This document shows positions 1 to 39,648 of a stretch of 64,000 nucleotides of DNA, in pieces (position 1 is the first letter of the stretch; each line of letters opens with the position of its first letter). The translations under genes were made by a program, and so were the position numbers. Source of the DNA: a phage. The notes beneath the pieces were generated by a model. It did not search any database. It saw only the letters and a list, made by a program, of their open reading frames with translations, and had not been told where the DNA came from. Location of the stretch: sequence record PX930852.1; one strand, given 5' to 3'.

Positions 1-178
1 AATAAAAATTTTAAAAATATTTTTGGCAAAACTGTAATGAAACGGGTGCGCACGACTACCACAAAACAGAACGCAAATCAAGAATTATTTTTCAATCCGC
101 TACAAATTTTTCTCTTGACTTTTGGGGAGAGGGGGAGTAAGAGGGGGAGAGGGGTTGGGCTGGCTGTCTATAAAAACC

Positions 179-368
179 TACCTGCACAATTCTAAAATGA
201 TTTTTCTTGCCCGACCTGAGCGGGGTCTGCACGTTTTGAAAATGAAAAAGCTCTTTGGAGATTACCTGCACAGTTTGAAAATGAATTTTCTCTTTGGAGT
301 TCAAAATTTTCTCTATAGATTTCTCTACAGAACTCTACCTGCACAAATCTGAAATGAAAAAGCCCTCC
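179..368. repeat. Four tandem direct repeats of a ~20-35 bp unit (core CTGCACANTTTNAAAATGA, some followed by CTCTTTGGAG) in a non-coding leader
   Basis: Copies seen at about 179-200, 227-260, 264-299 and 337-368; no credible ORF spans the region. Confidence 0.6.
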
Positions 369-430
369 TTACCTGAAAAATTTACCAGATAAGAAAGGCT
401 TAGGCTATTGTGAATATCCTACAGAGTTTC

Positions 431-1216
431 TTAGTTCTTTGCGTCTAAGAAGGTAACTTCTGGTGAAGAGAAGATTGCCTCAATATCCTCATCAGTTCTT
501 GCATAGATATAAGCTTCTGCATCACTACCAAATGTTACAGCAATTCTGTGATTGCTCTTTGACAGGTGGGTAACTAGAGCGTTACTTAGAGACATCTTTT
601 CAACCGGAGGGTTACTTTGATGTATCTTACCTTTTCTTCGTCTGAAGAGGGTAACTGCGTTATCTGTGAACACTGCTACACCTGCAAAGTATTCTGGTTC
701 ACAGTAGTTCTTCCAACCTGAGAGTAACTTGTGGTACATCTCTCCTTCATAGACATATAGATAAACATCTACACTCTTCATCACCTGATTGATGATAACT
801 GTGACGGCTTGAGGGTCAAGTCCACCGATACCTGCACCAATCATAGGTAAACCAACTTTCTTCAACTGATTGACTTCACAGTACCTGTTAAGTTTCTTCA
901 AAGATGACTCTAAAGCACTGTATCGGGCATCTTTACCAGTCTTAAGCTGAGTGTAAAGGTTAGCTATACGACCTTGTTTTAAACGTGCTACAGAGAAATT
1001 ACCCAGTAAATTTTCACAGGGCTTGTGGCCTATACCACCTGCATACAGATAAACTTCTGTATCGGTCTCATATGCTTTTGGGTAAAGTTTAGAAATCTTG
1101 TCAGCGATACCTGCACCCATTAAGTTCATACAGTTGCAACCGTGACCAATAATATCAAACTTACCTTTATCAAATGCGGAGAAGATATCCCCATTGATGA
1201 TTTTTACAATACCCAT
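431..1216 (-). CDS. Macro-domain-like (ADP-ribose binding/processing) protein with a C-terminal extension
   Basis: N-terminal INGDIFSAF..DIIGHGCNCMNLMGAGIA and later GLPMIGAGIGGLDP resemble the two glycine-rich motifs of macro domains (compare YmdB/Af1521 pattern). Confidence 0.5.
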   Translation of the reverse strand: MGIVKIINGDIFSAFDKGKFDIIGHGCNCMNLMGAGIADKISKLYPKAYETDTEVYLYAGGIGHKPCENLLGNFSVARLKQGRIANLYTQLKTGKDARYSALESSLKKLNRYCEVNQLKKVGLPMIGAGIGGLDPQAVTVIINQVMKSVDVYLYVYEGEMYHKLLSGWKNYCEPEYFAGVAVFTDNAVTLFRRRKGKIHQSNPPVEKMSLSNALVTHLSKSNHRIAVTFGSDAEAYIYARTDEDIEAIFSSPEVTFLDAKN

Positions 1217-1453
1217 TTAGCATCTCTCCCAAGATTCTTTATCTTCTGAAGGTTTTACACGTTGCCCTTCGTGGTCTACCCAGATACATCCACAGCCTTC
1301 ACAGATTACTGGCATTGCATAGCCAGCTTTAAAGTCATCTTCAGTGATAAGACCTTTTAAGTCACCTGTATCACGTCCAAACATTTCGATAGCACAATCT
1401 TTGCAGAAATCAGCCATGAATAATTGCCTCTTGAATGATGATGCCTTCGCCAC
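1217..1453 (-). CDS. Small Cys-rich hypothetical protein (possible zinc binding)
   Basis: CKDC...CEGCGC cysteine pattern; ORF abuts neighbours on the same strand. Confidence 0.35.
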   Translation of the reverse strand: MAKASSFKRQLFMADFCKDCAIEMFGRDTGDLKGLITEDDFKAGYAMPVICEGCGCIWVDHEGQRVKPSEDKESWERC

Positions 1454-1643
1454 AGCGACTTTTGAAATCTTCTAATGGTTCAGAGATGAAGCCGCGTAAA
1501 CGGTCACTGAATTTACGTTTTAAACCCTTCTTATAAGTTAGCACATCTTCCCCTGCAAACGGGACGACTTCATCTCTCCCTATGAATACTGCTGAACGTA
1601 CAATCTTGCGGGTCTTTTTATCTCTGGCTAGTATTACTTTCAT
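1410..1643 (-). CDS. Hypothetical protein
   Basis: ORF in a co-directional tightly packed block; start uncertain (overlaps downstream ORF). Confidence 0.3.
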   Translation of the reverse strand: MKVILARDKKTRKIVRSAVFIGRDEVVPFAGEDVLTYKKGLKRKFSDRLRGFISEPLEDFKSRCGEGIIIQEAIIHG

Positions 1644-1983
1644 AGTTTACCTTCTCAGTTAGCTCATATAAATCAACATGCTCAATACTATCAATGTTGA
1701 TATCAATCTTTTTGAAGCGTTCTATCACTTCGTTGTCAGTCATCCATATCAGACACCAATGATTCTGAATGGATTCTTCAAGAAGGTCAACACAATCTTT
1801 AAAAGTTTTTGTATCACTTCTTGTTCCGACTACTGCGATTGTCCCATACAACCACTTACCATTACCATAAGATACTTGTGCTACGCCAACTTCTTTATCT
1901 TTCTCGTAGTAAACGGCTACAAAGTCTCTTCCATTAATCTGCATTTGTAAGTTCCTCTGTTGGTAATTCACCATTTTCAGCAA
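1618..1983 (-). CDS. Hypothetical protein
   Basis: ORF in co-directional early-gene block. Confidence 0.35.
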   Translation of the reverse strand: MLKMVNYQQRNLQMQINGRDFVAVYYEKDKEVGVAQVSYGNGKWLYGTIAVVGTRSDTKTFKDCVDLLEESIQNHWCLIWMTDNEVIERFKKIDINIDSIEHVDLYELTEKVNYESNTSQR

Positions 1984-2248
1984 AGTATTGAAGGTACGGC
2001 AACAGTTCTTTTACCTGTTCTTGATTGAGTTTCATTCTTTGGTTACCTACAAAATCTTTGCCTACTAATGCTGGGATATCAAGTGTTTTCCAGCCACCAT
2101 CTAGGTACTGAACAGAGACCTCTTTAGCACCTAACCAGATACATGGTTCATATGATGAACTCTCTTGTAAAGTACAAATTTCCCCTTTAGCATCTTTAAA
2201 TTCTGCATAAGAAAATCCACGATTTGTTGGCTGGAATTGCATAATCAT
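1934..2248 (-). CDS. Hypothetical protein
   Basis: ORF in co-directional block. Confidence 0.35.
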   Translation of the reverse strand: MIMQFQPTNRGFSYAEFKDAKGEICTLQESSSYEPCIWLGAKEVSVQYLDGGWKTLDIPALVGKDFVGNQRMKLNQEQVKELLPYLQYFAENGELPTEELTNAD

Positions 2249-2514
2249 TTCCTCGTTTTAAGAACTGCTAAGATTTCTTTAGAGTCTGGTAAGAACCATG
2301 TGTAGTGATTCTCTTTGATTTCTGGATGAGTGTCAACCTTTATTTTGCACTCTTTACCAACATGCTTAAGCTGTGCTGTGACACCTTGCATAAAGATATG
2401 ACACATCACGTTGTCCATAATGGTTGGTGAGAAATCAACACGCATATAAGTTTCTTTTGGTCGTGGTAGTAGTAAGTACCCTTCTACATAGAAAGTGTCT
2501 TCATTCTCTGTCAT
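2245..2514 (-). CDS. Hypothetical protein
   Basis: ORF with 4-bp stop/start overlaps to neighbours. Confidence 0.35.
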   Translation of the reverse strand: MTENEDTFYVEGYLLLPRPKETYMRVDFSPTIMDNVMCHIFMQGVTAQLKHVGKECKIKVDTHPEIKENHYTWFLPDSKEILAVLKTRK

Positions 2515-2780
2515 TGCTGTTTGTTTCCTAATAAAATCATATCAATAAGGTTATTAGCTTTGATTGTGCACTGGTAAAAGCCGTCACGATAGAACTCAAG
2601 GGCTGCTGCTACATCGCTGCCTGTGTTGCCTTTGATGATATACCGTGATTCTTCTTGGGTGTACTTATCACCCTCACTTACTTGGGAGTTTTTGAATGTA
2701 CTGCTCACTTTGTTCGTTGAACACCCTGACATAGTTATCAGTAACACAAACATTATAAAACTCTGGCTTAGTTTTTTCAT
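2511..2780 (-). CDS. Predicted lipoprotein; candidate outer-membrane spanin (Rz1-like)
   Basis: N-terminal signal with lipobox-like LITMSGC; gene starts inside the 3' end of the upstream membrane-protein gene in another frame. Confidence 0.4.
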   Translation of the reverse strand: MKKLSQSFIMFVLLITMSGCSTNKVSSTFKNSQVSEGDKYTQEESRYIIKGNTGSDVAAALEFYRDGFYQCTIKANNLIDMILLGNKQQ

Positions 2781-3021
2781 ATGTTAGTACCTCTTTTGTA
2801 TGCTTATTCTTAGCAAGCACATCTTTCAAATCATTTTTGTAATTGGTGCTGAGTGTGGCTAAACCTTCCTGATAAGCATCTTTAGCAACACTTATTAGTT
2901 TCTCATTATTTAGCTCAGTTTCAGCAACTTGATAGTCTCTGTAAGAGTATCCTCCCCAGACACCTGCACCAACTAAGAAAACAATTATGAAAGTAGCTTG
3001 ACAGAACTCTTTAAATGTCAT
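2674..3021 (-). CDS. Membrane protein with N-terminal TM helix and helical periplasmic region; candidate inner-membrane spanin (Rz-like)
   Basis: TM segment FIIVFLVGAGVWGGY followed by charged helical sequence; overlapped by the lipoprotein gene. Confidence 0.4.
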   Translation of the reverse strand: MTFKEFCQATFIIVFLVGAGVWGGYSYRDYQVAETELNNEKLISVAKDAYQEGLATLSTNYKNDLKDVLAKNKHTKEVLTYEKTKPEFYNVCVTDNYVRVFNEQSEQYIQKLPSK

Positions 3022-3073: not shown

Positions 3074-3538
3074 TTAACCGAGGACTTTAGCAAGGATATT
3101 CGCAGCCATCGAAGAAGCTTTTGCAGCAGCAACTACGCCAGCTTTGACAGTGCTATCCTTAATAGCAGATACCGTTGCAGCATCAGTAAAGAGATAAGTG
3201 ATTGTTTTAGAACCACTTGTAAAGGAAAGCATAAGAGTAGTTTCCAGATTGAAAGAGCGATACGGAGCACCTTCTTTAACGATACCTTCAGCACCTAACT
3301 CTGAAGCCTTGCCCATATCATAGATAGTCATCAGGTTTTCTTTGTGTGCAGTAGTTGAACCAGCACCTTTTACGTGTTTTTTAACATTCAATAATGCACG
3401 ATATTCACGAATGCTGCCATCAGCTTTTACATTAACAGCACGAAAAATTTTACCTTCAAAGTTACCTTGAATCATTTTACGAACTATTGCAGATTTGTTT
3501 ACCGTATCGTCCAGTGCTACCGTAATGATATTGTTCAT
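3074..3538 (-). CDS. Hypothetical protein
   Basis: 154-aa ORF with no recognisable motif. Confidence 0.4.
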   Translation of the reverse strand: MNNIITVALDDTVNKSAIVRKMIQGNFEGKIFRAVNVKADGSIREYRALLNVKKHVKGAGSTTAHKENLMTIYDMGKASELGAEGIVKEGAPYRSFNLETTLMLSFTSGSKTITYLFTDAATVSAIKDSTVKAGVVAAAKASSMAANILAKVLG

Positions 3539-3548
3539 AAGTTTTCTC

Positions 3549-4244
3549 TCAATGTTTAACTAACATGGTTTTAATGTGTGGAAGGATTCTGTTCACCTTC
3601 TGCACATTCTTCTCTGTGTCTTCTATAAAACATACTATATTAAAGTAAGGCAGGATGCAAGACTGAATCATCCTCACTTTCAAACTTTCTGCACTTATAG
3701 AGTTAGTCCCAAAACCACGCATAAAAAGCATGTAATCATGCTCTATGTAATGCCTTAAAAACATCTCAGTAGGTATTCTCTGAGATTCACCTCTCGCTGT
3801 CAAGAGTCCAATGGCGGCATGATTAGCAATTGCATCAATAATATTGAAAACATACGTTGGTTTTGCTCTTACAGAGTCAAGCAAATTAGTGTACTGTGAA
3901 AATGACCCATCAATCAATTCCGTTGAGCAATCTTCGTGATTAAAATTTGTAAGAACACCATCAATGTCTGCTAAGATAAGGTTACCTTTTTCTACAAGGT
4001 CTTTATTGACTATGACTAAGCTATCACGACTTACGCCTATAGTTTGTCCAGTCTCTTTATCTACAACATTCACAATTGGCTCTGATGTGTGGAACTCTTC
4101 AAGTGAACATACAACTTCTCTTGCAGTGTCTTCAAAATCCCTACACTGTTCTGGAGTCCATACACAGGAATCAAGACCTAACTCATGAGGATGTAAGTCA
4201 TAAGCATGACACAGTACTTCATCAGACTTTCTTAATTTTTTCAT
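3549..4244 (-). CDS. HAD-superfamily phosphatase-like protein (possible nucleotidase)
   Basis: DIDGVLTNF (HAD motif I, DxDG) and GLLTAR (motif II-like). Confidence 0.4.
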   Translation of the reverse strand: MKKLRKSDEVLCHAYDLHPHELGLDSCVWTPEQCRDFEDTAREVVCSLEEFHTSEPIVNVVDKETGQTIGVSRDSLVIVNKDLVEKGNLILADIDGVLTNFNHEDCSTELIDGSFSQYTNLLDSVRAKPTYVFNIIDAIANHAAIGLLTARGESQRIPTEMFLRHYIEHDYMLFMRGFGTNSISAESLKVRMIQSCILPYFNIVCFIEDTEKNVQKVNRILPHIKTMLVKH

Positions 4245-4770: not shown

Positions 4771-4831
4771 TGGTTCTCCTGTTTAGTTTATCGTGACAAC
4801 AATTATACAGCACTCTGCACAAAATACAAAT

Positions 4832-4858
4832 AAAAAAGGCCGCCGGAGCAGCCTTTTA
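4832..4858 (-). terminator. Candidate rho-independent terminator
   Basis: GC-rich hairpin AAAGGCCGCC..GCAGCCTTT flanked by A/T runs, between convergently ending minus-strand genes. Confidence 0.4.
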
Positions 4859-4870
4859 AGAAATTACTTA

Positions 4871-5980
4871 TTAGATTTCACGTTTACGTTGAGAGATGAG
4901 TTCACCAGCAGTGCCAACGATGACATGCAAAGCTTCAGTCTTACCGTCCCATGCTTCCAGCACTTTACGTTGATTATCAACGATTGCTGCAACTTCATAA
5001 CGAGAGGAACGCATCTTCATATCGTTGTAATCAGTTGGAACAGATACAACATCTCGTGGATGTACGCGAACCTTCAGGATTGTATCACCTGAGAAGCAAC
5101 GAACATAATCCCAAGCACCAACATGAAGACCTTGAGAGCAAGTTACGTTACGGTTATTATCAACCATCCAACGTGGCATTTCTACAATGTTACCCAAATC
5201 ATTAGGCACTTTGTAGGTGTGAGAGTCAACCAGCTTGCCTTCACGAGTAGAGACTTTCTTCCAACCAATGATGTAGCCTTCTTCATCAATTTCAACATCA
5301 AGGTGAGATACAAATCCCCAAAGTTGTTCTACAGAATCTTTAGATGGGTTTTCCATCAGTTTTTCGAAGAACATCACAAGGCGTTCAAAGCCTTTGTCTC
5401 CAGTCTTCATCATGTGAAGAATACGGTCAACCAGAGTAGAACGCATCTCAACAGCACCGTAGAATAGCTTGTCGCCTTTGATTGTGATAGCACCCTGAGT
5501 GAAGTTTTCGATAGACTTACGAATGTTCATCAGTTCAAATGCTTTCTTGAACTCACCTTTCACAACATGAACTACAATCTCTTGATAGTTCGGATGAGTA
5601 GACTCAACAATTTCAGATTCTGAACCATAAGTCATAATTACAGAATCACCAGTAATCATGTACTCAATCTTGTCATCTTTCTGCATAGCTTCGTGCAGTT
5701 TATTTACTGGAGCTTTCTGTACAGCGTCTTTAACTACCTTTTCAACTGGTTTTCCAGCTTGCTTCTTAAAGGTCTTAGCAACTTGTTTCAAAGTCTTCGT
5801 AGCTGGTGTAGAAGTTGCCTTCTTATTCCCTTTTAAGGTTGCTTCATGACGCTCTACAGCACGACCGACTGAACGGGTTGAAGTGTTAAATTTCTGTGCA
5901 ATAGCTGTTTTGGTCAGCTTACCTTCTTTAACCAGTTTGTAAATTTCTGCGTCAATCTGTGCTTTAGTTTTAGTAGTCAT
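4871..5980 (-). CDS. rIIB-like protein (tentative), N-terminal HTH-like region
   Basis: Lies immediately downstream of the rIIA-like gene in the same orientation; size in the rIIB range; no diagnostic motif recognised. Confidence 0.35.
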   Translation of the reverse strand: MTTKTKAQIDAEIYKLVKEGKLTKTAIAQKFNTSTRSVGRAVERHEATLKGNKKATSTPATKTLKQVAKTFKKQAGKPVEKVVKDAVQKAPVNKLHEAMQKDDKIEYMITGDSVIMTYGSESEIVESTHPNYQEIVVHVVKGEFKKAFELMNIRKSIENFTQGAITIKGDKLFYGAVEMRSTLVDRILHMMKTGDKGFERLVMFFEKLMENPSKDSVEQLWGFVSHLDVEIDEEGYIIGWKKVSTREGKLVDSHTYKVPNDLGNIVEMPRWMVDNNRNVTCSQGLHVGAWDYVRCFSGDTILKVRVHPRDVVSVPTDYNDMKMRSSRYEVAAIVDNQRKVLEAWDGKTEALHVIVGTAGELISQRKREI

Positions 5981-6059: not shown

Positions 6060-8426
6060 TTAATCGTAAACTGTAGTTCCTTCTGGAACACACTTCACAT
6101 CAAAACCTAAGAACTTACTCACTTCGATGGGTGACACTTTATTCCAATCTAAATGGGAAAGCAAGAAGTTTTCTTGTTTTCTTTTTGAAAGGTAGTTTGT
6201 CACCTTAATAACCATACGGTCACCAGCTTTCTTAATTTTCTTGTAAAGCTTTGTATCGTTGTCAAGACAATCTTTCAAAGTTTTCAACACACTAATAGTG
6301 TAAGTGTATGCAAATGGTGCAGCAACATACTGGATTTTACCAAACATTGCCTCTACAGCCTCTTCATTACCTTCTAGGAAGATAGTTTTGTTTGTATCCC
6401 GTGAATAGCAATAGCCACGAGAAATCTTCCTGTTATTGAACGTAAAGTTTCTGGCAATAATCCAACTGCTTGTAAGGTCAAGGACACCATTCATATAGAT
6501 ACGTGTCATATACCTGTTATGATTAATCCAATGAACATCAGTTAAGCTATCGTTCAAGAGTTTCTCATCTACTTCAATCCAGTCTTCTGGTATCTTTTTC
6601 CAATTTGCTTTTCGGAAAACATAGACTGTCTTCCCTGTAACATTAGCAACTGACTTGGCTACATCTTCTGGAGATGAGCAAAAACATTCGCCATCAACTG
6701 TGTCACCAACTGCCTTAATGTAAAGCTGAGGCTCTTCAATTGTATCAAAGTCTTCTGAAACCTCTTTATAGGAAGCTACACCTTCTGCTGGAACAGCTTT
6801 CCAGAGTTTTACAACACCTCTTACAGCTTCTTTACGCTGGTAATGGTGCTCCTTATCAGACATTTTCACAATCTTTAACAAGCTTTTATCAAGTTTGTGT
6901 AGATTGATTAAATCATCTAACTCTTTTTCAGTCGAGAATACAAACACAATGCCATTATATCTGTGAAACAGACTGGACTCACTGGCGTAGTCTCGACATG
7001 CACCACGCAGAATCTGATTGCGGCCTACAGTCTTCTCAGTACCGTTTTTATTGCGACGGTCATTAATAACAAACAAAAACTGTTCAATTTGACTTTTACG
7101 CATTGCACCAAAGATATTGAACATACTTGCCTCTTGAGTGTAGGATAGTGCTGTTGCACGAATCTTACTCTCTAAAGAGTTAAACTTGACATAAGCAACT
7201 GGGTCATAAAGATAATCTACTTTAGGGATATTGTTCCCGTTCCTATCAACCTTAATATTACCTTTACCGTCACGTTCGTAAATGACTGAGCCGTCTTCTG
7301 CGTAGATAATTCCACGACGAATGTTTAGCAATTCTTCTTCCAGAGAATCAAGCTTAACGCCACCCCACTCTAGCTTTGGACACACAGCATTAAACATCTC
7401 TCGTGAGTTCAAACGTAACTCAGCATAAGCCTGTGCAGCATCCATGAGTGTAGGTTGGCTATTAACTTTCTTGATAACATCCTTTGTAATGGCTTCAGTT
7501 ATCTTTTTAGTAGCCTCAATGATAACATTTTTTGTCGTGTCATTCATCTGCAATGCTTCACGAGAAGCTGCAATAGCAACTGAACCAATAGGCATGTAGA
7601 TGTTTACAAGGTCTACGCTCCTACGGAAAAACTCTGGCAAGACTTTGAAGAAATCATCACCAAGTAACGCTTCCATGTTCACTGGATAGGCAATGTTACC
7701 CATCACCACATTAAACTCTGTCCTGTTATCACTAGAACGCCAGCTGTGCTTATGAATCATGGCATCATAAACACCTTCTTCACGGGCAATTACGTTCATA
7801 TCTGCTAATACATCGTCGTACTCAATATTACTTTCTGGTTTTACAGTGAAGTATGAGTACACATTCCCAGCTTCTTCAAAGAACTTTGAGATACGGTGGT
7901 CAGCAACTGCCACACGTACAGCTAAACCATTAGGTTCTTTTGTTTGGTTAGTTGTCAGCTTAGTTACTTGAGGGATACCATTCTCAAGATAAACAGAGTA
8001 CTTATTAACAACACCGTCAACATAACTAGATACTGTGAATGACTGAGCAATTGCAAATGGTGACTTTGAGCCGATACCCATTGCACCAATGTAGTCATTA
8101 GAGTCATTCTTCGTAGAAGCTCCATAGTTTAGGTACAAACTCATAACTTTATCATGAGTCAATCCAGTTCCAAAATCACGAACTTCGAAGTAAGGCTCAA
8201 AACGAGTAGGTAAATGCACATGGAATGGGATGTTCTCTTTTCCAGCTTCTTTCTGAGCATCTACTGCGTTACATGACAGTTCACGAATCACTGCCCTTTC
8301 TTTAAAGGTATATACACCAGAACTCAAAAGGCTGAACATCTCAGGTGTCATTGTAATCTGTGCTTGAGACGTCTCTAAAGAAGTTGAACTCTTAATCACT
8401 TCTGCGTGGTCATTTACCATGCGCAT
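6060..8426 (-). CDS. rIIA-like protein with N-terminal GHKL (histidine-kinase-like) ATPase fold
   Basis: RELSCNAVDAQKE (N-box), RDFGTGL (G1) and GAMGIGSKSPFA (G2) motifs; ~790 aa; followed by rIIB-sized gene. Confidence 0.55.
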   Translation of the reverse strand: MRMVNDHAEVIKSSTSLETSQAQITMTPEMFSLLSSGVYTFKERAVIRELSCNAVDAQKEAGKENIPFHVHLPTRFEPYFEVRDFGTGLTHDKVMSLYLNYGASTKNDSNDYIGAMGIGSKSPFAIAQSFTVSSYVDGVVNKYSVYLENGIPQVTKLTTNQTKEPNGLAVRVAVADHRISKFFEEAGNVYSYFTVKPESNIEYDDVLADMNVIAREEGVYDAMIHKHSWRSSDNRTEFNVVMGNIAYPVNMEALLGDDFFKVLPEFFRRSVDLVNIYMPIGSVAIAASREALQMNDTTKNVIIEATKKITEAITKDVIKKVNSQPTLMDAAQAYAELRLNSREMFNAVCPKLEWGGVKLDSLEEELLNIRRGIIYAEDGSVIYERDGKGNIKVDRNGNNIPKVDYLYDPVAYVKFNSLESKIRATALSYTQEASMFNIFGAMRKSQIEQFLFVINDRRNKNGTEKTVGRNQILRGACRDYASESSLFHRYNGIVFVFSTEKELDDLINLHKLDKSLLKIVKMSDKEHHYQRKEAVRGVVKLWKAVPAEGVASYKEVSEDFDTIEEPQLYIKAVGDTVDGECFCSSPEDVAKSVANVTGKTVYVFRKANWKKIPEDWIEVDEKLLNDSLTDVHWINHNRYMTRIYMNGVLDLTSSWIIARNFTFNNRKISRGYCYSRDTNKTIFLEGNEEAVEAMFGKIQYVAAPFAYTYTISVLKTLKDCLDNDTKLYKKIKKAGDRMVIKVTNYLSKRKQENFLLSHLDWNKVSPIEVSKFLGFDVKCVPEGTTVYD

Positions 8427-12559: not shown

Positions 12560-12880
12560 TTACTGAGCTACTTTCAAGATGCTTGTGAATGAAATCTCAC
12601 TCTCATCCATAAACTCTTTTGCTTCTCCAGTAACTTTCACAAAGTTATCTAGGCAGATAATCTTCTTATCTTTCTTGCTGTAGGTTAGCTTAACCTTTTC
12701 AATATCTTTCTTAGAACTTTTCTCTTCATTGAAGAGTTTTACAGCCTCTTTGAATGGGAGGTATGAGCCATCATCATCGCTAATAAAACCTGTACCACAA
12801 TAGTAGAAGTTGTATTCTTTAGCCATAAACTGGCACAGTACGAAAATCTGTAATTTACGAGTGTTATAAACTTTGCTCAT
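12560..12880 (-). CDS. Hypothetical protein
   Basis: 106-aa ORF. Confidence 0.4.
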   Translation of the reverse strand: MSKVYNTRKLQIFVLCQFMAKEYNFYYCGTGFISDDDGSYLPFKEAVKLFNEEKSSKKDIEKVKLTYSKKDKKIICLDNFVKVTGEAKEFMDESEISFTSILKVAQ

Positions 12881-12882
12881 GG

Positions 12883-13149
12883 TTATTTAACCTTCTTGTT
12901 ACGTTTACGGTTACGAGCTTTCTTAGCTGCTCGTTTAATAGCTGCTGCACCAGATTGGCGGTGGGCTTGTTTCTTACCACCTTTACCACGTCCTACGTAG
13001 ATGTAAGGCTGCTGTTCAATTTGGCTTGCAAGAACCTGTGCAACCGCTGAAGCATCTACACCGACCTGCTTTCCAGTCATAGAAACAATTGCTGCTGCTT
13101 TTTCCAGTGCCTTCAAGAATCCAGCTTTCATATTACCTAAAATTCCCAT
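12883..13149 (-). CDS. Small highly basic protein (possible nucleic-acid binding)
   Basis: C-terminal KRAAKKARNRKRNKKVK. Confidence 0.35.
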   Translation of the reverse strand: MGILGNMKAGFLKALEKAAAIVSMTGKQVGVDASAVAQVLASQIEQQPYIYVGRGKGGKKQAHRQSGAAAIKRAAKKARNRKRNKKVK

Positions 13150-13245
13150 TTTTAGTCTCTCTCATTAAAGTTTAATACAGAACTTATGAAGTTCTTCTTC
13201 AGTGATACCAATTGGAGTTATACCTTAGTCCATTTGCCAGAATAA

Positions 13246-13731
13246 TCACTCTGCTCTCCACTGACAATCACCTTGCCATCCGTACTCTTTTCTCCAGAGG
13301 TTTTGGTTATCTGAACCACGATACGGTTTAACTGTTGGTTTAGATGAATCATACTTACCATCAATCACCACGTCAACATATTTCATCACATCAAGGTGAA
13401 TTTTTTCATGTAACTGAAAACCTGTCCAGAGCCAGATAGATTTTTCTGGGTAAACGGTTTTAATACGTTTGCATATGTTGGTAACCTCTTGAATATTTCT
13501 ATCATCTAGAGGTTCTCCACCAAGTATTGACAGCCCACTGATGGCATTATCATCCATTAACTTAATGATGCCATAAAGGTTTGCATAAGTGAACTCTTTA
13601 CCAGCATTAAACTTCCAAGATTCCTTATTAAAGCAGCCTTCACAGTGATGCTTACAACCAGCTACGAAGAGGCTTACACGAACCCCTTCACCATTAGCTG
13701 TGTCAAATGGTCGAATCTCCATGTAATTCAT
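13246..13731 (-). CDS. nrdG: Anaerobic ribonucleotide reductase activating protein (radical SAM)
   Basis: CKHHCEGC (CxxxCxxC) radical-SAM cluster motif near N-terminus; size and position next to nrdD. Confidence 0.75.
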   Translation of the reverse strand: MNYMEIRPFDTANGEGVRVSLFVAGCKHHCEGCFNKESWKFNAGKEFTYANLYGIIKLMDDNAISGLSILGGEPLDDRNIQEVTNICKRIKTVYPEKSIWLWTGFQLHEKIHLDVMKYVDVVIDGKYDSSKPTVKPYRGSDNQNLWRKEYGWQGDCQWRAE

Positions 13732-29917: not shown

Positions 29918-30113
29918 ATACTTTAAAGCTTTTTAAAAGCTATTAAATAATCTTTTAAGAATTTTAAAGTATCTGTATAGTTAAACTGTTAAGTAACCTT
30001 TTAAGTAAAAACCCACTTCGCAAAGATTAACACCTTGTCAAGTGCATTGTCAACTTGCTTTTTATAATTTTTTGCAGTAATGTATGAGGTTAATGATTTT
30101 AGAGGGAGTAAAA

Positions 30114-39132: not shown

Positions 39133-39648
39133 ATGATTGATATCTACTTACAAGATGCTCATGCAGATTTCCTTAAAGAGATGCTTAAAAAGTTTATGGC
39201 TTCACATTATGAGAATGAAGCATCTTTTAAAATAGTTACATGTGGCGACGAAGCTGGTTTTGTTGAGATTGAACATGAAGGTACTGGAAAGACTGTTTGT
39301 AAGCTACCTGATAGCATGTTCTCTAAAACGTTCTTAACAAAGACTAGTATAAATGTTAAGCTTGTGCCTCAGATTGAAACATACTCTGGTACAGATTACC
39401 CTAAAGGTTTCAAGTCACTAATGAAGCACTTCTTAGATGACTTTGTGGGTAATCTTCTGAGGGAGGTAACAGAAAGCCGTACAATATTAACTGTAGAGAA
39501 TATAGGGAACACTATCAGGGTTACTTCTGACCGATATTCTATGAGCCTCTTCGACTTTGTACCTAAGAACTTTGATGGTATTCTGGATGAAGAAGATGAC
39601 TGTGTAGACTTTATATTGGTTCTTGAACCAGTTTTTGAGGTTAAATAG
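39133..39648 (+). CDS. Hypothetical protein
   Basis: Start set at ATG 39133 after AGGTGA RBS. Confidence 0.35.
   Translation: MIDIYLQDAHADFLKEMLKKFMASHYENEASFKIVTCGDEAGFVEIEHEGTGKTVCKLPDSMFSKTFLTKTSINVKLVPQIETYSGTDYPKGFKSLMKHFLDDFVGNLLREVTESRTILTVENIGNTIRVTSDRYSMSLFDFVPKNFDGILDEEDDCVDFILVLEPVFEVK

Follow-up and report, generated by a model that had tools for sequence, protein, structure and literature searches.

In the phage sequence analysed here (record PX930852.1, a stretch of 64,000 nucleotides called the window from now on), a non-coding gap near the left edge carries four copies of a 26-bp, two-part unit, all of them in the same orientation and best read on the minus strand. The units stand at a single locus of the genome, are conserved in relatives from several genera, do not belong to a coding region and show no sign of RNA structure. 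These features suggest that they are iteron-like sites for a sequence-specific DNA-binding protein. The preferred function for the array is an origin of replication, or an initiator-loading site, activated by transcription directed into it, to which we give a probability of about 35%; the origin function, as well as any role of the G-rich tract located beside the array, is speculative. An earlier note on this DNA had proposed an iteron-like origin, a packaging or genome-terminus element, or a cluster of repeated early promoters or operators. An iteron- or operator-like array is the best remaining of these readings, regarding the single genome locus of the units and their deep conservation.

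The four direct repeats described in the earlier note, with the core CTGCACANTTTNAAAATGA, are present and non-random. Matches to this core were found at 182-200 (one mismatch), 227-245 (one), 266-284 (none) and 339-357 (three), and the whole window holds five matches versus 0.61 expected, a number that was reached in none of 100 shuffles. The fifth match, at 39200, looks like a chance occurrence. The word "tandem", on the other hand, does not apply to them, as the copies are scattered at spacings of 45, 39 and 73 bp instead of being head-to-tail; Tandem Repeats Finder (TRF) reports just one tandem repeat in the region, a 12-mer present twice at 308-331.

The conserved unit is longer than that core. 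A profile built from 133 units (71 of them distinct) of 30-odd loci gave the consensus G[C/A]WWWW-TCATTT-YMRAWTY-GTGCAG[G/A]TA, which can be summarized as the pattern G[C/A]WWWW-TCATTT-N7-GTGCAG. The blocks TCATTT and GTGCA are nearly invariant and lie 13 bp apart, centre to centre, the 7-bp linker between them is A/T-rich but variable, and the upstream tract is T5 or A4-5. In the direction of early transcription, on the minus strand, the units are U1 (338-363, GCTTTTTCATTTCAGATTTGTGCAGG, 38.7 bits with the position weight matrix of the profile), which is the last of the four repeats in the earlier note and is conserved across genera, U2 (265-290, GAAAATTCATTTTCAAACTGTGCAGG, 36.6 bits), U3 (226-251, GCTTTTTCATTTTCAAAACGTGCAGA, 36.8 bits) and U4 (181-206, GAAAAATCATTTTAGAATTGTGCAGG, 35.9 bits). 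The matrix was also used to scan the complete genome of phage LF82P3 (the window plus contig L037) with a threshold of at least 14 bits, and just these four units were returned, at 35.9-38.7 bits. Hence, the motif is not a general promoter, terminator or regulatory word but marks one locus.

The underlying period of the array is around 37-39 bp. The gap of 73 bp between U1 and U2 has double this length and is filled by the two copies of the 12-mer (TCTGTAGAGAAA and TCTATAGAGAAA on the minus strand, detected by TRF and by alignment), which are probably a degenerated fifth unit. Between U3 and U4, the alignment revealed a short GC-rich hairpin-like spacer (209-227, GCCCGACCTGAGCGGGGTC); it is not conserved as a hairpin, because the relatives carry AGAAAAATC or ATAAAAATC instead. 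It should be noted that in one contig (L005, IMGVR_UViG_3300045988_004180, around 3500-3698) unrelated GC-rich DNA begins after this small hairpin and encodes a fragment of a P-loop (GGNGAGKST) protein on the opposite strand, which looks like a chimeric join with host DNA.

The presence of the repeats in relatives had been named beforehand as one of the points on which the proposal could fall, and three to five copies are kept across genera. Felixounavirus and Moogle/SUSP-like loci have four units in the identical place and orientation, while BPS17L1, phiWec174 and contig L078 have three, together with a different terminator that is again fused to the first unit. Four units with spacings of 37, 37 and 39 bp and cores ending in GTGCAT are found in Erwinia phage M7 (Kolesnikvirus) and in an M7-like contig of 84.6 kb (L067), and four to five in an 88-kb IMG/VR contig (L062) whose phosphatase is merely ~46-50% identical. 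Even M7 retains a recognisable U4 together with its 5' flank GGTCGGGCAAG, and this unit gave the blastn match of window positions 183-285 to Kolesnikvirus phages. A search of IMG/VR with a two-unit pattern returned contigs of the Ounavirinae type and otherwise only unrelated coding repeats in tail-fibre-like genes.

In the comparison of the window with the Moogle-like phages, identity is 81-96% for the unit cores and 56% for third codon positions in the adjacent gene; in that with M7, it is 62-81% and 34%, respectively. This points to purifying selection on the units, since they are conserved although the neighbouring synonymous sites are saturated. The conserved islands in the column-wise profile of the region are the unit cores, a TTGACT box and the A/T tract that flanks it.

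Concerning the genomic setting, megablast of window positions 1-3000 matched 258 phage records at 93-97% identity, nearly all of them from Felixounavirus and allied Ounavirinae with E. coli, Salmonella, Shigella and Citrobacter as hosts, and positions 1-430 are 100% identical to Felixounavirus LF82P3. The genome size is about 85 kb. The window runs as the reverse complement of the Felix O1 reference (window position 36 is position 8309 of NC_005282), and because of this the genes from around position 431 onward are on the minus strand; they are rIIA, rIIB, polynucleotide kinase, the spanins and a macro-domain "phosphatase" (431-1216). The array and the G tract occupy a non-coding gap, about 500 bp long, that separates Felix O1 ORF13 (open reading frame 13, the phosphatase) from ORF15, which lies beyond the left edge of the window. 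Since the gap continues to ORF15 beyond the cut, the "left-edge leader" of the earlier note is an artefact: the edge is where the window was cut, not a genome end, and the region is internal.

The gap is bounded by the intrinsic terminator (t13) of the early operon from rIIA to the macro-domain gene and by the strong sigma-70 promoter of the next small early genes. Along the minus strand, the stop codon of the phosphatase gene is followed by the t13 hairpin with its T-tract, U1 fused to that T-tract, the two 12-mers, U2, U3 and U4, a cassette of about 58 bp that is G-rich in the window (G-type), the invariant AAAAGTCAAGAG (TTGACT on the plus strand), a conserved spacer of around 110 bp, an AT-rich tract and the promoter TTGACT-17-TAATAT. 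The conserved non-coding spacer (1-114, minus strand) ends in the AT-rich, UP-like tract (1-30) of this strong early promoter, which starts just outside the left edge of the window.

Two other features of these records were observed. The sign of the GC skew flips at around window position 30000 (from negative to positive) and at around 42000 (back), coinciding with switches of the coding strand between transcription units. Moreover, GU169904.1, a 147-kb record named 'Staphylococcus phage SA1', contains Felix O1-like sequence at ~128.7-136.5 kb with 92-97% identity, including the array region and the terminal-repeat homologue described below, and is probably a mixed or chimeric record.

The possibility that the array is a coding region was ruled out on either strand by the frame shifts between genera and the absence of a significant family match. 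The four local ORFs had no PHROG match, and Pfam gave only one match, below the cutoff. The unit spacings are multiples of three by chance alone in Felixounavirus, with other frames in the Moogle-like loci and M7, and indels of 2 and 4 nt occur; the ORFs are thus spurious, as the earlier note had suspected for two overlapping ORFs. One of them, Felix O1 'ORF14' (8042-8254, window 92-304, minus strand), was treated as a 70-aa gene in the Felix O1 paper and has been dropped from RefSeq, and it can be removed as a mis-annotated gene. A structured RNA, a tRNA or an Rfam family was likewise ruled out: the fold z-scores were +0.51 for the plus strand and -0.88 for the minus strand, RNAalifold gave -4.78 kcal/mol with 0 compensatory pairs, Rfam returned chance-level matches only, and no tRNA was found.

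A two-part site consisting of the A/T tract with TCATTT, seven variable A/T-rich bases and GTGCAG could be bound by a phage- or host-encoded protein, and two blocks joined by an A/T-rich linker would suit contacts by a DNA-binding protein that is dimeric or has two domains. The upstream flip between T5 and A5 maintains an A-tract in duplex DNA but would change the RNA, which argues for recognition at the DNA level. An iteron-type origin is expected to show at least three same-orientation copies of a motif of initiator-site size at one locus, and four 26-bp units are found here. The array is insulated by the terminator and flanked by a conserved promoter directed inward and by a stretch with up to 82% AT.

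That inward promoter is a candidate antisense promoter on the plus strand (115-143), with an invariant -35 box TTGACT at 115-120, an A/T tract upstream and only TAAGAG (138-143) in the -10 position. Where another type of cassette replaces the G-type one (alt-type), it supplies an extended -10 element, TGgTAGCCT. The equivalent in M7 is TTGACG-18-TATACT, which matches 10 of 12 consensus positions, is aimed into the array and stands back to back with the next early promoter. Hence, a promoter pointing into the array seems to be conserved, and it would help an origin by transcription.

The same promoter could have another purpose. By transcribing the array, it could produce an antisense or non-coding RNA with four modules (CUGCAC...AAAUGA), which would act in cis on the 3' end of the mRNA of the phosphatase operon or as a sponge. 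The invariant -35 box and A/T tract, the extended -10 of the alt-type and the M7 promoter are consistent with it, and so is the late signal of the gap: in the Felix O1 study, the reverse transcription PCR (RT-PCR) product across the gap ('ORF14') peaks at 25 min and those of ORFs 13 and 16 at 5 min, in an assay that is not strand-specific. 'ORF14' is not a conserved ORF. The late timing counts in favour of the origin reading as well. However, neither strand shows a thermodynamic or covariation signal and no Rfam family was matched, the flip between T5 and A5 is neutral for DNA shape and not for RNA, the -10 box is poor in the G-type, and there is no terminator for the plus direction. An RNA function is therefore regarded as unlikely.

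Returning to the origin, several results weigh against it. A regular helical phasing in multiples of about 10.5-11 bp, typical of iteron origins, was not found; the spacings are 73, 39 and 45 bp here and 37, 37 and 39 bp in M7, and a spacing of ~3.5 helical turns places neighbouring sites on opposite faces of the helix. Only DnaA- and IHF-like matches with one mismatch, and no GATC, were present in the region scanned, and the neighbouring genes gave only the Macro domain or PHROGs of unknown function, with no recognisable DNA-binding, Rep or initiator gene among them. The AT-rich stretch (78-82% AT), at a distance of ~150 bp, is at the same time the UP element of the next promoter, and the inward promoter with the G-type cassette, given its poor -10 box TAAGAG, was not called by the promoter scan. 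Furthermore, U1 overlaps the T-tract of t13, so part of the similarity between units may come from duplication of the terminator tail. No mapped origin of any Ounavirinae phage appeared in the literature searched, and the accessible literature held nothing on the Felix O1 origin, on transcription start sites or on these repeats.

Known binding motifs were also compared with the units, and none of those for sigma-54, sigma-E, sigma-32, the MotA box, LexA, Fur, PhoB, OmpR, CRP, IHF, Fis or DnaA fits all of them. The comparison was made by eye with consensus sequences, with regular-expression scans in addition for DnaA, IHF, Fis and CRP.

Sites of this kind could also serve transcription. The array could be an operator or insulator between two early transcription units, bound by a phage regulator or a host nucleoid protein that would block read-through of t13 and/or repress the inward and downstream promoters during the switch from early to middle expression. 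Two-part sites that are unique in the genome, fixed in orientation and conserved suit an operator as well as an origin, they are located exactly between the terminator and the promoters, and the kinetics of the gap amplicon differ from those of its neighbours. On the other hand, the array is ~200 bp from the downstream promoter and overlaps no strong -35 or -10 box, there is no recognisable regulator gene nearby, and instead of these units, a hairpin cassette is the repeat found at the other early promoters of the block. An operator or insulator is possible, and we hold it as a tentative second choice.

Regarding those other early promoters, among the small early genes downstream the first has the strong TTGACT-17-TAATAT and the others have the weaker TTTACA-17-TAAAGT, with 9 of 12 matches (L037 1282-1345; L002 5200-5240 and 5680-5720; L006). 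A GC hairpin, for example TTTACAAGGGGCTTATAGTTCGATAAAGTAAGCCCC, is located within or just after these promoters. The 57-bp repeats that the Felix O1 paper mentions are apparently these repeated promoter-hairpin cassettes.

The units themselves do not behave as a cluster of early promoters, which was one of the proposals of the earlier note. The promoter scan required sigma-70 hexamers spaced by 16-18 nt, at least 9 of 12 matches, and A2 and T6 in the -10 box. No unit of the window reaches this level, although one unit of phage nataliec does (TTTTCA-17-TATATT, 9 of 12); the best-conserved bases are not at -35 or -10 positions, and at distances of 37-45 bp the units leave no room for RNA polymerases to bind independently. 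Two specific promoter arrangements were rejected as well. A minus-strand TTTTCA-17-TAnnnT fits U1 alone, a plus-strand TTGGAG/TTGCCA-16/17-GAAAAT is weak (~7/12), and neither explains the invariant TCATTT and GTGCA.

The close relation of U1 with the terminator deserves attention. The Rho-independent terminator t13 (350-401, minus strand) consists of a 17-pair hairpin at 360-401 followed by the T-tract TTTCATTTCA at 350-359, and this T-tract doubles as the 5' half of U1. The Felix O1 paper lists t13 at 7947..7994 with -21.8 kcal/mol; in our scan the hairpin and tail recur in close relatives, and they are annotated as a terminator in XTG1. The array could therefore be an evolutionary relic, a functionless tandem duplication of the terminator tail (GGGCTTTTTCATTT...) kept by hitch-hiking or as linkers at which mosaic modules recombine. 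Besides the fusion of U1 to the T-tract, terminators t5 and t2 end in similar tails (CTTTTTCATTT and TTTTTTATTT, with GTGCAG after t2), and the terminator, spacer and cassette types assort independently, which implies crossovers inside the array. Nevertheless, the cores are conserved where neighbouring synonymous sites are saturated, the GTGCA half belongs to no terminator, and lineages whose terminators are unrelated have maintained both copy number and orientation. The relic is for these reasons considered quite unlikely.

Behind t2, which itself follows rIIB (window 4795-4850, minus strand), come TTTTTTATTTGTATTTTGTGCAG and then TATAAT, and the tail with GTGCAG resembles half a unit; this part overlaps the likely promoter of the next gene. 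As for the assortment of types, the terminator, the spacer variant between U3 and U4 (ACCCCGCTC or AGAAAAATC) and the cassette (G-type or alt-type) are found in several combinations when window positions 121-430 are compared with loci L009-L029, L039 and L040, and thus recombination breakpoints lie inside this region of 300 bp.

The other part of the proposal, a genome terminus or packaging element, can be confronted with mapped termini. A direct terminal repeat of 581 bp, mapped by PhageTerm, is annotated at both ends of the Pr103Blw record, and its two copies are identical. In UAB_Phi87, a phage with the G-type cassette, a terminal repeat of 608 bp was shown by Bal31 digestion and run-off sequencing. 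The homologous sequence is at 12771-13339 in Felix O1 and at 68140-68729 in LF82P3, that is, 3.9 kb beyond window position 1, and three records ordered by PhageTerm begin with it. The mapped repeat (581-608 bp) is therefore 3.9-6.4 kb away from the array, which refutes the terminus or packaging reading; in the comparison with the genome ends of relatives that the earlier note had suggested, the array is internal and does not stand at any of these ends.

What could point to a terminus is that at least six independent assemblies of G-type Felixounavirus (L003, L004, Andreotti, EC106, LMP34 and TH10) break in or beside the G tract. These contig ends look like assembly artefacts, though. The L004 end runs into the Nextera adapter, Andreotti (MN850610) starts with a fold-back artefact, and the two ends of TH10 (MT446388) overlap by 77 nt, as a k-mer overlap would, with the break in the tract; the record of EC106 (ON210138) starts in the tract and that of LMP34 (MK482690) ends in it. 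Because assemblies break there, contigs can appear to "start" at this place, and the tract is a recurrent breakpoint in Felixounavirus sequencing and assembly that can mislead the placement of genome termini. Considering both the mapped repeats and the promoter scan, a terminus, pac site or early-promoter cluster is very improbable.

The terminal region of Pr103Blw (L036 6484-7522 and L035 1-1300) is non-coding over ~1.7 kb and dense in short repeats, CTTGTTAAG / CTGTTAAG and CTATAGAG / CTATAAAG. The 12-mer of the array (TCTRTAGAGAAA) and the terminal-repeat region share a CTRTAGAG core. In the reverse complement of contig L062, about 160 bp dense in TTAACA repeats come directly after the array (~5600-5800), and the contig ends ~800 bp past the array; read on the opposite strand, TTAACA gives TGTTAA, a word of the terminal region.

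The G tract is the second element of the gap. The G-runs reported in the earlier note at 121-160 are indeed present as a 40-nt string, but they begin at 124, not at 121. A feature overlooked there is that the tract forms a perfect, homopurine-rich mirror repeat on the plus strand (122-156, TTGGGGAGAGGGGGAG-TAA-GAGGGGGAGAGGGGTT, with arms of 16 nt and a spacer of 3) that holds a canonical G-quadruplex (G4) motif at 124-154. Each arm consists of purines only in its inner 14 nt, and the early-sense strand of the tract is C-rich. With four runs of at least three G and loops of 1-7 nt, it is the sole (G3+N1-7)x4 motif in the window, and it is also the sole mirror repeat with arms of at least 12, while 20 shuffles of the whole window gave arms of 11 or less and just 0.08% of composition-preserving shuffles of 121-160 reached arms of 12. 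The potential to form a G-quadruplex, as had been suspected, is strong in silico: the G4Hunter score is 2.45 (above the limit of 1.5), and folding with ViennaRNA gives -26.7 kcal/mol when G-quadruplexes are allowed and -7.4 when they are not, a gain of 19 kcal/mol. The tract has in addition the sequence features of an H-DNA motif, which are a homopurine mirror repeat with arms of at least 10 nt and a spacer of 8 nt or less.

The tract is part of the variable cassette (121-178), which has conserved flanks. The G-type is carried by the window, Felix O1, wV8, UAB_Phi87 and the Moogle-like phages, in ~84-110 of the ~289 records holding the region, and in M7 a shorter stretch rich in G stands at the corresponding position. 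The alt-type of nataliec, phiWec174 and others is an unrelated sequence with TTGACT-17-TGgTAGCCT on the plus strand. A necessary functional link between the tract and the repeats is not supported by this distribution, and the G-rich mirror repeat seems to be an exchangeable neighbour cassette that is not essential to the array. The mirror symmetry is perfect or near-perfect in many Felixounavirus, with arms of 12-16 nt, whereas Felix O1 and wV8 have arms of only 9 nt and the Moogle-like phages of 5-7 nt; since the symmetry decays in this way, selection for H-DNA as such is not supported.

The G-rich mirror repeat could nevertheless adopt a G4 or H-DNA structure, and its transcription from the inward promoter would favour R-loops. 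In a combined form of the origin proposal, the array and the inward promoter would be the origin of Felix O1-like phages, with a G-rich leader, transcribed in G-type genomes, forming G4 or R-loops that prime or open the DNA beside the iterons; this is considered doubtful. More speculative is the idea that the locus marks, as in T5, the limit of a terminal segment of 4-6 kb that carries the small early genes and is injected first.

Felix O1 is a classical phage for Salmonella typing and biocontrol, and phage therapy and food safety make wide use of related phages. No description of the array or of the tract was found in the accessible literature; the repeats given in the Felix O1 paper are different ones, and that paper placed an ORF at this position. 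The array is a concrete target of ~180 bp, a precise and testable candidate for the origin or a regulatory site of a much-used group of phages.

Several known systems offer a comparison. ColE1 RNA II and the mitochondrial conserved sequence block (CSB) II are G-rich elements for R-loop priming. The perfect homopurine mirror repeat with its canonical G4 motif resembles such H-DNA, G4 or R-loop priming elements in sequence, and its position directly downstream of the -35 element means that a transcript would be G-rich. Unlike them, it belongs to a replaceable cassette that most of the Felixounavirus records searched lack, and the adjacent -10 box is poor. If the priming reading were true, this would be a case of ColE1- or mitochondrial CSB-like priming in a virulent myovirus.

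The injection-stop-signal region of T5, at the end of the first-step-transfer DNA, is repeat-rich and non-coding. The array is similarly located a few kb (4-7% of the genome) from the terminal repeat and bounds small genes that each have a strong host-type promoter, although the motifs are unrelated and Felix O1 is not known to inject its DNA in two steps. The 43-bp repeats of F sopC and the 39-mers of Vibrio cholerae chromosome II are plasmid and chromosome maintenance arrays that work with proteins of the ParB or RctB type, and they share with the units a period of ~37-43 bp, a conserved core, a variable linker and a single orientation. In contrast, no genes of the ParB or RctB type are present here, and a virulent phage is not known to need partition.

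Closer to the reading as an origin are the direct-repeat origins of lactococcal phages and the iterons of T4 oriE, where the repeats lie in a non-coding gap of the early region that transcription enters; they were established by plasmid-replication or interference assays. The array shares with them a virulent phage and repeats in a non-coding early gap, with unrelated motifs. Iteron-type origins comprise the lambda ori with four sites for the O protein and the iterons of plasmid RepA, RepE and pi, with phasing of 11 or 22 bp. The array differs from these in its spacing of 37-45 bp, in having no sequence similarity to known iterons, and in the lack of a recognisable Rep- or O-like initiator gene and of a convincing DnaA or IHF site. 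It resembles them in the three to five same-orientation copies of a motif of ~20-26 bp at a single non-coding locus, near an AT-rich stretch and a strand-asymmetric purine tract, and the promoter that reads toward the array recalls the transcriptional activation of the lambda ori. A direct-repeat binding array in an early-region gap of a phage is, in this respect, a familiar kind of element.

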